Virus record (IMG/VR): IMGVR_UViG_2541047778_000009 | Direction: 5' to 3' (one strand) | Origin: a virus | Taxonomy: Duplodnaviria; Heunggongvirae; Uroviricota; Caudoviricetes | DNA length: 4,640 nucleotides | In this document: piece after piece, positions 1 to 4,640 of the stretch | Numbering within the stretch: the first letter of the stretch is position 1 | Layout of the letters: each line of letters opens with the position of its first letter | Position numbers and translations under genes: made by a program | The notes under the pieces: model-generated | Seen by the model: the letters and a program-made list of their open reading frames with translations, nothing else | The model's database searches: none | Told to the model about the DNA's origin: nothing

Positions 1-149
1 AAGGCTGGGCCATACTCCTCCGGCAGAAGCAGAAAAAGCTTATTATGCTTCCATCGGAAACGATGATCTGGCAGCCTGAGTTCACAGATAAAACACTCTC
101 CAGGAAACCCGGGGCGGTTCATCTGGGTACATTAGATGCTTTTTGCTGA
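1..149 (+). pseudogene. Truncated inverted duplicate of the 5' region of the large gene at 3492..4640; frame is open from the window edge, ATG at 45, stop at 147..149
   Basis: Plus-strand translation from the ATG at 45 gives [26 protein letters not shown], identical to the first 26 residues of the minus-strand ORF 3492..4622. It then diverges (LGTLDAFC) and stops exactly after the repeat boundary at 122/123. The frame is also open upstream to position 3. Confidence 0.35.
27..122. repeat. Left arm of a perfect inverted repeat (partner 4545..4640)
   Basis: Manual comparison: the reverse complement of 4545..4640 is identical to 27..122 (96 of 96). Identity breaks at 123 (left) versus 4544 (right). 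The right arm runs to the window edge, so the repeat may extend further; positions 1..26 would then pair with sequence beyond 4640. Confidence 0.9.
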
Positions 150-657
150 CTAGCATATTTACAGCATCACGAAGCGGAGTCCTGTCATCAACAGATGTTT
201 TCTTCCGTGCATTTGCTGCCTCTCCCTTTGTCCAGTAGTCATGCAGCACAGTAAAGCATTCTTCCTGGTACTGAATCAGTTTATCGCGGATGTCAGCACG
301 AACTTTCTCAGGGTTGATGCTGAACAGCCATCCATTTAACTTCTTCAAAGGAAGGCAGAGTAGCTTACGAAGCTTACCATCAGCGGCAACCATGTTCATA
401 TGAACACAGTTGAATTTGCTAATCTGCTTCATGAGTTTTGTTTGCTGCGTTGACCAGCTCATTCCGAGGTTTTCAACGATTGGCTTCATCGCAACATATG
501 CAACTCCGGCAGCCATGGCGGTGATAATTTGCTGACCGTTGAATGGCACGTAAGAGGTGTTCACTGCTTCTAAAATTGCTATACTATTCATGTTGGTTTT
601 TCTCCACGGATTTACCGACAACCGAAGCCCTGACTGTTCCAGCAGTTGGGGCTTCAC
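82..657 (-). CDS. Phage antirepressor-like protein (P22 Ant N-terminal domain-like), possibly C-terminally truncated
   Basis: 191-codon ORF with a GTG start at 657; an alternative ATG at 591 ([21 protein letters not shown]...) lies about 10 nt after a GGAG. The segment FNGQQ...[14 protein letters not shown]...[13 protein letters not shown] resembles phage antirepressor N-terminal domains from memory (not searched). It sits directly downstream of the arc-like gene on the same strand, as ant does in the P22 immI operon. The last ~12 codons and the stop are encoded inside the inverted repeat (85..122). Confidence 0.55.
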
Positions 658-823
658 TGTTTTGATTTCTTTGCCGCATCAAGCATCACTTCTGAAAACG
701 TGCGCTTGCCACTGAATACTCTTTCTCTTCTCAATTTTTCGTTCGTGCCAAATGATTCGCCATGAACAAAATTTGGTCTTAAAATGGTAATCGCAATCTC
801 TTTGACTACTGCATCCAAGCGAA

Positions 824-1090: not shown

Positions 1091-1339
1091 ATGGCAAAGG
1101 GTGTGTCAATTTCTCCAACTACGGTAAGAATCCCTGAATCTTTACGCGAGGCTCTTGCTGTCAGAGCATCAAAAAATGGTCGCTCTGTTAACTCCGAGAT
1201 CGTCATGATTTTGCAAGCCGCGATTGATGAAGATAGGTCGCCAAAGTCAGTTGAGTCATTTGCTCAGCAAGAAGCTGATAAATTCAAAGAGGCGCTACTT
1301 GAGACGCTAAAGACCATGTATGCTAAGGATGAAAAATAA
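1091..1339 (+). CDS. mnt: Mnt-like ribbon-helix-helix transcriptional repressor (82 aa)
   Basis: From the ATG at 1091, preceded by AAGGTG 4 nt upstream. The protein MAKGVSISPTTVRIPESLREALAVRASKNGRSVNSEIVMILQAAI...FKEALLETLKTMYAKDEK matches P22 Mnt (83 aa) in length, the N-terminal RHH region (FNFRMPMEVREKLKFRAEANGRSMNSELLQIVQDAL) and the C-terminal helix (LKDLYKK). It is divergent from the arc-like gene as in P22. The ORF-track start at 1049 is a TTG extension and is not preferred. Confidence 0.8.
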   Translation: MAKGVSISPTTVRIPESLREALAVRASKNGRSVNSEIVMILQAAIDEDRSPKSVESFAQQEADKFKEALLETLKTMYAKDEK

Positions 1340-1875
1340 TGCTGCACACAATTCATTTCTTATGCCCTGTTAACACTGCCACTGTTGGGCAACTTCAGAA
1401 CCACTGTCTCACCGCATTATCTCAAGGCGCAACTGAATTAAATATCCATATATCAAGTCAGGGAGGGGAAACTGCTGCTGGCTTTACTGCGTATAACTTT
1501 CTTAAGTCACTCCCTGTTACCGTTAGAACTCACAACATAAGCAATGTTGAATCCATAGCTAATATCGTTTTCCTGGCTGGCTCAGAACGTTTCGCAAACC
1601 CATTATCAAGATTCCTGTTACATCCTCTATTATGGTGCTTTGCCTCCCCAGCCGCCGACCATGCCAGATTGAGAGAGTACGGGAAATGCCTCGATAACGA
1701 TCTTGATCGCTTCGTTGAGACGTTCAATATCGACATCGGAACCCATATTAGGTGGGCATCCCTGATAGCAGACTCGACCATTTTGGATGCTAACAAGGCT
1801 CTTGAGCATGGCATAATTAATTCCATAAAAACTGCAAGGCTGGCATCCAATCAGGCAAACTGGTGGGTTGTTTGA
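1339..1875 (+). CDS. ClpP-fold (S14-like) serine peptidase-like protein, 178 aa, translationally coupled to the mnt-like gene
   Basis: The ATG at 1339 overlaps the mnt-like stop (TAATG). Manual alignment to E. coli ClpP: NIHISSQGGETAAGFTAYNFL against [21 protein letters not shown]; a candidate nucleophile Ser72 (codon 1552..1554, context NVESIAN against GQAASMG); His95 (codon 1621..1623, LLHPLL against MIHQPL); a candidate Asp145 or Asp150; and C-terminal ANKALEHGIINSI against APEAVEYGLVDSI. Homology is judged by eye only. Confidence 0.55.
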   Translation: MLHTIHFLCPVNTATVGQLQNHCLTALSQGATELNIHISSQGGETAAGFTAYNFLKSLPVTVRTHNISNVESIANIVFLAGSERFANPLSRFLLHPLLWCFASPAADHARLREYGKCLDNDLDRFVETFNIDIGTHIRWASLIADSTILDANKALEHGIINSIKTARLASNQANWWVV

Positions 1876-3044: not shown

Positions 3045-3123
3045 CCACCGTTCTATCACCGACTAACTTTACTCCCACTCCTATACATCATCTGGTATCC
3101 TGCGCAAAACTAAGGAGGTTGGT

Positions 3124-3474
3124 GTGAATGCTCAGTCTGTCATCATGGTTTTCCTTGGGCTGATTGTCGCAAAACTATATCCAGACTGGTGGAAAGGGGC
3201 ATTAGCTACTGTCGCCATCTATTTGCTTTTATCCATCGTTAAGCGATCACTCGCTGAGACCGTAAATCAAGCAAAACGTTTCTCATTTAAGAGTTTAATA
3301 AACTATGTTACTGGGCTTATTTTTTGCCTTTCAATTCTGATCGCTTCGGCTTTTTTGCCCGTATCAATAGCTAATTTTTTTGGCGCACCATATGAGGTAG
3401 GTTATCTATTCTCTGTTTCCTGTCTTGCCATTGCTCTTCTTTACCTGTGGACGAGATCAAAGAATAAAAATTAG
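3124..3474 (+). CDS. Small integral membrane protein (116 aa, about 4 predicted TM helices); candidate superinfection-exclusion (SieA-like) or immunity protein
   Basis: GTG start at 3124 with AGGAGG 5 nt upstream. Hydrophobic stretches: VIMVFLGLIVAKLY, ALATVAIYLLLSIV, LINYVTGLIFCLSILIASAFLPVSIANFFG and VGYLFSVSCLAIALLYLW. It is convergent with the large gene at 3492..4640 and ends 17 bp from its stop. Its position relative to mnt/arc/ant matches sieA in P22. Confidence 0.6.
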   Translation: MNAQSVIMVFLGLIVAKLYPDWWKGALATVAIYLLLSIVKRSLAETVNQAKRFSFKSLINYVTGLIFCLSILIASAFLPVSIANFFGAPYEVGYLFSVSCLAIALLYLWTRSKNKN

Positions 3475-3486
3475 CCATCCGTGGCT
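3473..3486. terminator. Short hairpin between convergent genes (AGCCA-TCCG-TGGCT); possible weak terminator for the minus-strand gene
   Basis: 5-bp stem with a 4-nt loop, read directly. On the minus strand it is followed by AATTTTTATT. The stem is short, so this is a low-confidence call. Confidence 0.25.
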
Positions 3487-3491
3487 GCCAG

Positions 3492-4640
3492 TTATTGAGC
3501 TTCTTTTTGTGATGCCTGTGCGACTCTGGTGAGCGATTGTGTGACCGTACTGATCGCTCTGTCATATGCTGTGCTACCTTTTGGCGTATTTGCCAGACGT
3601 AACAAGGCATTTCGTATAACAGGGCTTTCGTATGCCTTCGCAGCTCCTCCTACGACACCAGCAGCAGGAACAACAAACGCAGCCGTTTTTAGCATCCCCG
3701 CTAATACTGCTGCGTTTATGATGCCACCACCAACTAACAATCCATAAAGCTGCTGACCATTTAAGTTTTGAACGTTCGCTTTTGCCGCGTGTCTTGTATC
3801 GTTGAGGTATTTAATAACGCCGTCCAGTTCCTTTCCATGTACGCCTTTAAAGAAAGTTGCTGATTGCTTCCTGTTCCGGTGTAACGCATTAATAAACTTT
3901 TCAACACTAATATTTCCAGACGGATCAGTCGCCTTATCTACAGCATTCTGAACTATGGCTGCTCGTGCGTTTTGCCTACCATTGTCATCCAGAAGCCTGT
4001 AAAGCTGAGAACGTTCTGATGGGTTTTGGCTAAAAACGAGTTTTGTTACATCCTCAGGTGTAGCCTTGCCGCTGGCTATTGCCTTTTGAACGCGCGTTCT
4101 TCCCATCATGTCATTGAATCTAGCCCATGAGCGATCAACCCTAGACATATTGGCAGCTTCTTCTGAGCCTAGTTTTTGGGATACTGCTTTTTTCATATCC
4201 GCTGTATATGCCTTGTAGACAATATCGCTGGCTTTCTGGAGCGTGTCTTTATCAACAGTCTCGTTTGAATTCATGAACCGCTTTCGAAGGTCAGTTCTGT
4301 TTTCTCTCGCCAGACGCAGGTCATTGGGTCCGCTGGTGATATCGTCTTTAAATTGCTGCAAGACTTTTACCGCGGCTCTATCCTGAGATTTGCCCGGGCG
4401 GCTTAACACGGCAATCTGATTGTCGATAGCTTTTACCGTGTTTGAGAGATCGACAGGGGTATCCCCCATAGCGTCAATTATGCGGTTATATCGCTTTCCT
4501 GCTGCCTCAATGAATTTTTGTTGCCCTTTAGTCGCAGATTCATAATGAACCGCCCCGGGTTTCCTGGAGAGTGTTTTATCTGTGAACTCAGGCTGCCAGA
4601 TCATCGTTTCCGATGGAAGCATAATAAGCTTTTTCTGCTT
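3492..4640 (-). CDS. Large helical, charged protein with a C-terminal hydrophobic Gly/Ala-rich helical hairpin; probably 5'-partial; candidate phage DNA-ejection protein (P22 gp16-like position) or membrane-active toxin
   Basis: ORF track gives 376 aa from the ATG at 4622, but the frame has no stop between 4623 and the window edge (KQKKLI) and no convincing SD precedes the ATG, so the true start may lie outside the window. The hydrophobic segment LYGLLVGGGIINAAVLAGMLKTAAFVVPAAGVVGGAAKAY is encoded around 3630..3750. The first 26 codons after the ATG lie inside the inverted repeat. No family recognised by sequence; the function is inferred from composition and synteny. Confidence 0.7.
   Translation of the reverse strand, partial: KQKKLIMLPSETMIWQPEFTDKTLSRKPGAVHYESATKGQQKFIEAAGKRYNRIIDAMGDTPVDLSNTVKAIDNQIAVLSRPGKSQDRAAVKVLQQFKDDITSGPNDLRLARENRTDLRKRFMNSNETVDKDTLQKASDIVYKAYTADMKKAVSQKLGSEEAANMSRVDRSWARFNDMMGRTRVQKAIASGKATPEDVTKLVFSQNPSERSQLYRLLDDNGRQNARAAIVQNAVDKATDPSGNISVEKFINALHRNRKQSATFFKGVHGKELDGVIKYLNDTRHAAKANVQNLNGQQLYGLLVGGGIINAAVLAGMLKTAAFVVPAAGVVGGAAKAYESPVIRNALLRLANTPKGSTAYDRAISTVTQSLTRVAQASQKEAQ
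4545..4640. repeat. Right arm of the perfect inverted repeat (partner 27..122)
   Basis: See the left arm. Identical over 96 bp in inverted orientation, and it reaches the window edge. Confidence 0.9.

Follow-up and report, generated by a model that had tools for sequence, protein, structure and literature searches.

The 4,640-nucleotide (nt) stretch of viral DNA analyzed here (the window; IMG/VR virus record IMGVR_UViG_2541047778_000009) carries a gene for a 116-amino-acid (aa) protein with four hydrophobic helices (3124-3474, + strand), which converges on an open reading frame (ORF) of the P22 gp16 family (3492-4622, − strand) and occupies the slot of the P22 superinfection exclusion gene sieA. 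Alignments indicate that this small gene and sieA are alternative alleles of one cassette slot with sharply defined borders, and we see it as a little short of an even prospect that its product is a nonhomologous, positional analogue of SieA that blocks DNA injection. A first-pass annotation of the window had pointed out the convergent ORFs, the 17-nt gap between their stop codons (3475-3491), and a small hairpin (3473-3486), all of which are present; it read the pair as an ejection protein plus a SieA-like exclusion protein or, alternatively, as a toxin plus its immunity protein.

The argument for allelism draws on conserved borders, alternative occupants, and gene order. On the left, the slot begins with CTAAGGAGGTTGGTGTG (3110-3126, + strand), which contains a ribosome-binding site and the GTG start and is common to three alternative cassettes in our alignment. 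On the right, it ends at the hairpin AGCCA-TCCG-TGGCT (3473-3486, + strand; 5-bp stem and 4-nt loop), which overlaps the TAG stop codon of the small gene. Near-identical Escherichia coli islands beside yicG have one of three genes between CTAAAGG(G)AGGGTTGGTGTG and this hairpin: the 116-aa gene, a gene for a 204-aa SieA homologue, or a gene for a secreted protein with a typical signal peptide, MNQLKRLVVSGLLFASFGANA. The cassette with the SieA homologue (L018; hhalign E value of 1e-11) has the same upstream 85 nt, the same GTG, and the same hairpin, and the adjoining gp16 3′ end is 98.6% identical. With respect to mnt, arc, and ant, the genes are ordered and oriented as in P22, with the small gene between homologues of P22 genes 16 and 9, and the earlier synteny argument (gene 16 converging on sieA, followed by mnt, arc, and ant) holds in comparison with both P22 and the intact prophage of E. 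coli S88. Because the hairpin is conserved, the cassettes alternate, and the order and orientation are those of P22, the 116-aa gene appears to be an allele of the sieA slot.

The third cassette (L019, 3019-3456; L020, 3018-3458) is annotated as encoding 145 aa, or about 131 aa from the shared GTG, and its product lacks membrane helices; it is a candidate for another envelope-acting exclusion factor.

Taken by itself, the hairpin is at chance level in the window (one terminator-like site versus 0.5 expected; fold z-score of −0.08). It recurs as (A)GCCA-TCCN-TGGC(T) in every context of the family and between P22 sieA and gene 16. In an alignment of 11 sequences, 94.5% of cells pair, versus 11 to 45% in slid controls, and both partners are substituted in two of the five pairs (G-C to A-T and A-T to T-A). 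G-T pairing, seen in two cases, is restricted to the + strand, the one from which the small gene and sieA are read, and this suggests that the hairpin works in the transcript of those genes. It is probably the 3′-end stem-loop of the small-gene or sieA transcript, and on the opposite strand it can act as a terminator-like site for gene 16. Two further hairpins of this kind were noticed. In Yersinia enterocolitica (L009, 5953-5966), a second copy, AGCCTTCCATGGCT, lies just upstream of the ribosome-binding site of the small gene, after the stop codon of a 108-aa gene, so that the cassette there has a hairpin copy on either side. The Q antiterminator gene of E. coli prophage HS1 is followed by a similar hairpin, TTGCCATCCGTGGCAA (L007, about 13349-13360).

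The small gene keeps its association with gp16-family genes well beyond the window. We examined ten further contexts: E. coli S88, U14A, B4103-1, and an O111:H8 strain; Yersinia enterocolitica; Edwardsiella tarda; and four metagenomic contigs that carry distant members. In nine of the ten, the small gene converges on the 3′ end of a gp16-family gene, intact or decayed to a pseudogene, and the gap is 17 to 23 nt in eight of these nine; in B4103-1 (L004), the adjoining gp16 is a pseudogene without its C terminus and lies about 300 nt off. On three of the metagenomic contigs the partner has no Pfam record, and one of these was confirmed as gp16 by BLASTP (63% identity, E value of 2e-102). The exception is the O111:H8 strain, in which the small gene lies intact beside ykgL and gp16 is gone entirely; the small gene is thus intact in two kinds of remnant, beside a dead gp16 (in the window) and without gp16 (in O111:H8).

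Among complete E. coli genomes, 188 of 5426 have the small gene adjoining this type of gp16, and a few have the small gene alone. About as many have the same gp16 3′ end (87 to 99% DNA identity), with homology that breaks exactly at window positions 3473 to 3475. These counts bear on the idea that the small protein serves the infection cycle of its own element, as a helper of gp16 insertion or as a lysis or holin-like accessory. Such a role would fit the strict linkage of the small gene to one gp16 clade and a weak, subthreshold Pfam similarity to a holin family (E value of 0.065). However, the holin match falls far under the 28.4-bit threshold, the small gene is read in the direction opposite to the late operon and is not part of the lysis cassette, and phage N7, whose gp16 is 71.5% identical, does without it. 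Since about half of the E. coli elements with a near-identical gp16 3′ end (96 to 99%) also lack the small gene, gp16 does not need it, and we consider a function in the element's own cycle improbable.

We also considered a link between the small gene and a very hydrophobic variant of the gp16 C-terminal segment; it was rejected, as the other variant is found in the Edwardsiella and P0034 contexts and the hydrophobic one pairs with the SieA-homologue cassette.

Rather than full P22-like prophages, many of the elements with the small gene are islands of about 20 kb located between yicC and yicG (U14A, L021, about 15400-35600; also L004, L006, L018 to L020, and Edwardsiella L010). Their genes encode an integrase, a helix-turn-helix (HTH) protein, AntA/AntB, ash, a TOPRIM-DUF927 primase, PerC, and a Doc toxin; the only virion genes are DUF2824 and the gp7-, gp20-, and gp16-family ejection genes, and capsid, portal, terminase, and tail genes are missing. 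These islands resemble satellites equipped with ejection proteins of their own, a combination on which a literature search found nothing. In U14A (L021, 18976-19968), about 1 kb between the HTH regulator gene and the small gene has no annotated gene, an unusually long interval that could hold an RNA or a missed ORF.

We are confident that the small ORF is a real, constrained membrane-protein gene in the sieA slot. A Shine-Dalgarno sequence, AAGGAGG (3112-3118), lies 5 nt before the GTG at 3124, and the ratio of nonsynonymous to synonymous substitution rates (dN/dS) is 0.39 to 0.46 among close alleles and 0.13 to 0.14 against the Yersinia allele (dS of about 1.3). When 1.84 billion representative proteins were searched exhaustively with HMMER, only seven clusters (at 50% identity) emerged as members of the family, and four of them are distant members of 115 to 120 aa with 37 to 38% identity. 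Residues invariant in the family include those of an N-terminal MNxQ...V-x-K-L-Y-P motif, F53, Y61, G64, L65, F67, P79, and R111. A chance hydrophobic ORF in a decayed prophage might likewise have no family annotation and sit in degraded surroundings, as this one does; that explanation is already refuted by the pattern of conservation, namely a dN/dS of 0.13 at a dS of about 1.3 and a start, length, and set of helices that persist at 37 to 38% identity, to which the strong Shine-Dalgarno sequence is added, and we give it practically no weight.

The distant homologues begin with ATG at the codon that matches GTG 3124, which, together with the position of AAGGAGG, argues that the 116-aa reading is the correct one and that calls of 109 aa and 129/130 aa are mis-starts. 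RefSeq starts for this gene are inconsistent, giving 109 aa from ATG 3145 here and 129/130 aa elsewhere (L004 and L006); the 129/130-aa forms take in upstream sequence that is a common 5′ leader, also found before the other cassettes.

The first-pass annotation described the product as a small protein with four transmembrane (TM) segments. Four hydrophobic segments are indeed present by hydropathy (residues 1-19, 23-39, 57-88, and 90-110), and two AlphaFold runs, both of low confidence (pLDDT of 57 and 63), place helices at 3-18, 23-49, 55-85, and 90-115; the 4-TM assignment, and the topology with it, thus draws on hydropathy, the positive-inside rule, and low-confidence models. The loop at residues 40-56 has a net charge of +4 and the C-terminal tail one of +3, as expected for cytoplasmic segments. 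The positive-inside rule thus predicts a cytoplasmic location for both termini and the central loop and a periplasmic one for the conserved KLYPDWW turn and for the FFGAPYE loop.

The small protein represents an unannotated family. No scan against Pfam, PHROGs, PADLOC, or NCBIfam produced a match that reached or approached a family threshold; the Pfam and NCBIfam copies used contain no SieA model (P22 SieA itself is unmatched), so these scans are silent on SieA membership. No relative was found in the PDB, and a Foldseek search against viral structures gave no match at an E value of ≤0.001, which is uninformative with so weak a model. A literature search on the accessions of the small protein also found nothing.

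The partner of the small gene is, with near certainty, a gp16-family gene truncated by an insertion sequence (IS). The 376-aa ORF at 3492-4622 (−) is a chimera in which 26 IS-derived codons are fused in frame to gp16 sequence that begins at 4545. What remains of gp16 (3492-4545, − strand) is a pseudogene remnant that corresponds to the C-terminal 350 codons, residues Y321 to Q670 by alignment, of the 670-aa protein of S88 (WP_000868966.1). Comparison with the intact S88 gene puts the IS junction at 4545/4546; residues 1 to 320 have been removed, leaving no intact full-length frame, and RefSeq likewise calls the gene in the window a pseudogene ("injection protein, missing N-terminus"). The first-pass annotation was right that the large gene is incomplete; the cause is the IS at 4545/4546 and not the edge of the window, and both the IS and its inverted copies had been overlooked. 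Its suggestion to recover the full gene beyond 4640 leads to transposase sequence rather than to the rest of gp16, because the ATG at 4622 and the first 26 codons lie inside the IS.

The reading of the large ORF as an ejection protein is borne out by several comparisons. BLASTP against P22 gp16 gives an E value of 1e-41, with 32% identity to residues 282-592 over 326 aligned columns, and the profile of PHROG 770 ("DNA transfer protein"), which has 668 positions, is matched from 300 to 667 at 8e-106; PHROG 29117 matches also. By tblastn, gp16 homologues occur in 151 phage records. The intact 670-aa S88 allele, which RefSeq labels "P22-gp16 family phage DNA ejection protein," comes after gp7- and gp20-family genes, as do its counterparts in Yersinia and on one metagenomic contig; in the window itself, the upstream genes are deleted. 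Like P22 gp16 (PF26808, PHROG 770), the large ORF carries the conserved C-terminal YES...RNxLLRLANT...AY(D/E)RA motif. It differs in belonging to a clade of 670 to 700 aa (the S88, N7, and Yersinia types) whose Gly/Ala-rich segment is longer and far more hydrophobic. This segment, LYGLLVGGGIINAAVLAGMLKTAAFVVPAAGVVGGAAKAY, is the stretch of about 40 residues near the C terminus that was remarked on at first pass; it lies at 3630-3749 (−) and comprises 40 residues by hydropathy. It aligns with the region of P22 gp16 that contains SieA escape mutations, and the glycine that matches P22 G532 is conserved.

P22 gp16 is packaged in the virion, is released before the DNA, and is required for DNA entry; mutations that escape SieA map to gp16 and gp20, those in gp16 being G532W and P546S (PMC10883804). 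By analogy, intact relatives of the gp16 clade in the window would be packaged in the virion, released upon infection, and form the inner-membrane end of a gp7-gp20-gp16 DNA conduit. This half of the finding is ordinary, in that the family is already known and the gene is here a pseudogene.

The same evidence bears on the toxin/immunity alternative, in which the large protein would be a pore-forming toxin and the small protein would protect the producer. A hydrophobic Gly/Ala-rich segment in the large protein and the tight linkage of the two genes are what such a pair would show; pore-forming colicins and their immunity proteins likewise form convergent pairs of a hydrophobic-helix protein and a small protein with three or four TM segments, and immunity proteins to E1-type pore formers have the size and helix count of the small protein. 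Colicin pairs differ in lying in a plasmid SOS operon with a lysis gene rather than beside a prophage late operon, and neither a colicin domain nor an immunity-family match was found here. The gene for the large protein ends a 7-20-16 run and specifies a virion ejection protein of the gp16 family; the large protein matches no colicin or bacteriocin family and has no PDB relative, and no Pfam family is matched by either protein at an E value of ≤0.01. The supposed toxin is dead in the window and absent in O111:H8, yet the small gene is kept, and gp16 genes that are nearly identical have quite different partners. With no colicin or immunity family found even at an E value of ≤10, the toxin/immunity alternative is largely refuted, and we regard it as very unlikely.

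What the small protein might do is best framed by SieA. Both genes lie directly downstream of gene 16, convergent to it and on the strand of mnt, and both run into the same GCCNTCCNTGGC hairpin; SieA (type A in P22 and type B in HS1; PF26849) is also a small, multihelix, predicted inner-membrane protein with a basic central loop, and its gene is interchangeable with the small gene in one cassette slot of near-identical E. coli elements. It is this replacement of the small gene by a true SieA homologue, in the same slot of near-identical elements, that supports a functional analogy. The small protein would be expressed by the prophage of a lysogen, insert in the inner membrane with its N and C termini in the cytoplasm, and block DNA injection by P22-like phages by disturbing how the gp16/gp20 conduit assembles or functions, in the manner of SieA. 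The small gene is retained intact in prophage remnants, perhaps because exclusion benefits the host.

Small inner-membrane proteins that stop incoming DNA at the cytoplasmic membrane are also represented by T4 Imm and HK97 gp15. These come from unrelated phages with different entry machinery and are likened to the small protein by concept alone; they are not known to be related to it in sequence. More tentatively, we propose that the small protein founds a fourth class of P22-like injection blockers: a minimal one, nonhomologous and without the SieA motif, which would act on the gp16/gp20 conduit solely via its membrane helices and the conserved, periplasm-facing KLYPDWW turn and would be one allele of a cassette exchange site used by CUS-3-like prophages and satellite-like islands. 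In either form, the small protein is a candidate for a new, nonhomologous variant of the known sieA-type exclusion function and not for a categorically new kind of system.

Several results count against a SieA-like function. The hhalign probability of a match to SieA is 2% for type A, 0.1% for type B (HS1), and 0.2% for broad profiles that combine types A and B, compared with 97.4% for the L018 slot protein, which served as the positive control for the same SieA profile; BLASTP against SieA gives an E value of 0.29. The SieA family is defined by the motif FxRYPxEAxxFNK, located in the conserved cytoplasmic C-terminal region (PMC10883804). This motif and S-x5-NR are carried both by P22 SieA (164 aa) and by HS1 SieA (212 aa; L007, 30462-31100), a functional protein of type B, as our alignment and the earlier work agree (PMC10883804). 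The motif and the S-x5-NR context are both absent from the small protein, which ends 6 residues past its last helix. It is also some 50 to 100 residues shorter than SieA (116 aa versus 164 to 212 aa) and has almost no cytoplasmic tail, and it has a signature of its own, the N-terminal MNxQ...VAKLYP.

The slot, moreover, also takes unrelated proteins (the secreted 131/145-aa protein and, in phage N7, a single-TM protein), and occupancy of the slot alone therefore fixes no function. A tblastn search of 50,697 deposited phage genomes with the small protein gave no match, so that no phenotype can be borrowed from a studied phage, and no consensus sigma-70 promoter was found upstream of the small gene. 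Finally, the last 134 residues of P22 gp16 are dispensable for membrane association in vitro, and the hydrophobic stretch of gp16 therefore need not be a membrane anchor.

Remote homology to SieA was a candidate at one stage: an early hhalign comparison (P = 0.024) paired RFSFKSLINYVTG with SieA KFSPxxFENRITD, at the same S-x5-N spacing. It was rejected when broader profiles (0.2%) failed to reproduce it. Judged from these comparisons, the small protein is not SieA by descent. Of the earlier description of it as SieA-like, then, the position and the gross architecture stand, and homology does not.

The strongest competitor, although a doubtful one in our estimation, is that the small protein is a prophage moron membrane protein whose role does not involve the ejection conduit: an abortive-infection effector, a protection against colicins or other membrane-active agents, or a factor that changes envelope physiology. 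Adjacency to gene 16 would then reflect a recombination-prone cassette site. Such a role would agree with the acceptance of unrelated cassettes by the slot, with the defense- or toxin-antitoxin-like character of the neighboring genes (for a YafO-family toxin, a 188-aa protein, and a ClpP-like protease), and with the lack of correlation between the small-gene family and any variant of the gp16 hydrophobic segment. Against it, the small protein matches no PADLOC defense model and no colicin or microcin immunity family (E value of ≤10); SieA, the sole characterized occupant of the slot, blocks injection; and linkage to gp16-family genes extends across genera, down to 37% identity.

If the small protein is indeed an injection blocker, the entry of the gp16/gp20 conduit into the inner membrane could be probed in a second and simpler way, with a much smaller protein that is unrelated to SieA and alternates with it in the slot; SieA is the only characterized blocker of P22-type DNA injection. 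The pair would also make a clear case of convergent exclusion functions swapped as cassettes. The small gene occurs in about 3 to 4% of complete E. coli genomes, including K1/extraintestinal pathogenic E. coli (ExPEC) and avian pathogenic E. coli (APEC) lineages with CUS-3-like prophages, and an exclusion function could limit infection by, or therapy with, P22-like phages in K1/ExPEC/APEC strains.

The window corresponds to the immunity-I/moron region of a CUS-3-like (P22-like) E. coli prophage that lies at argW and has decayed. All 4640 nt are 100% identical to complete E. coli chromosomes, for example that of SCU-116 (NZ_CP051719, 1241892-1246531), where they lie between tRNA-Arg (argW)/intS and dsdC, and an intact prophage version of the region was found in E. 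coli S88. The argW site is where the P22-like, neuO-carrying phage CUS-3 integrates, and CUS-3-like prophages reportedly decay often (PMC9659370).

Both ends of the window are formed by copies of an IS3-family element. The right-hand end of one copy occupies 1-121 (+), with the transposase stop codon at 77-79, and truncates ant; the right-hand end of a second, inverted, and identical copy occupies 4546-4640 (−), truncates the gp16-family gene, and provides the ATG at 4622 and the first 26 codons of the 376-aa ORF. Together they give a perfect 96-nt inverted repeat (27-122 and 4545-4640; 100% complementary). The two copies are identical over a 1311-nt run (L001, 7812-9122 and 13545-14855), which corresponds to an element of about 1310 bp plus one coincidental flanking base, and the terminal inverted repeats of both begin with TGAACCGCCCCGGG. 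Assignment to the IS3 family follows from the RefSeq annotation in SCU-116 ("IS3 family transposase, programmed frameshift") and an AL1L pseudoknot; its terminal repeat, TGAACCGCCCCGGG, suggests an IS629-like element.

No target-site duplication was found at either IS copy, which fits IS-adjacent deletions, and the 4.4 kb in between is oriented relative to its flanks in SCU-116 just as it is in the intact S88 prophage. The simplest history on these two grounds is two IS insertions followed by adjacent deletions, one of which took the C terminus of ant and most of the tailspike gene, while the other took the entire stretch that runs from gp16 codon 320 across the genes for morphogenesis, lysis, and replication. 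As sources of the terminal inverted repeat, an invertible segment and an assembly artifact were both rejected: the arrangement recurs in several complete genomes, the repeat arms are the ends of two annotated IS copies, and the segment is oriented as in the intact prophage. The inverted IS pair around the 4.4-kb immI/moron block forms a composite-transposon-like structure.

The rest of the block contains further immunity-I genes. An Rfam sar RNA (RF00262, 83.9 bits), which regulates ant translation as an antisense RNA in P22-like immI regions, is intact at 592-658 (+), and ant itself is IS truncated at 122. At 1091-1875 (+), a gene for an Mnt-like ribbon-helix-helix repressor overlaps by one base (TAATG) a gene for a 178-aa ClpP-like serine protease (Pfam Clp_protease, 2e-11). 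The best PHROG and NCBIfam matches of the protease are head maturation proteases, and its gene sits in immunity-I, far from head genes; the Mnt-like/ClpP-like pair also occurs in phage phiv205-1 and others. A strong, bidirectional terminator-like hairpin follows the ClpP-like gene at about 1895-1925. A two-gene operon at 1924-2948 (−) encodes a 188-aa protein (PHROG 8416, E value of 2e-96) and, 8 nt downstream, a 149-aa YafO-family toxin homologue (PF13957, 3e-22). The 188-aa protein is twice the usual size of a YafN antitoxin and matches no antitoxin family. The only PADLOC match is very weak (ZorA, E value of 0.004); the two genes may form an atypical toxin-antitoxin or abortive-infection pair.

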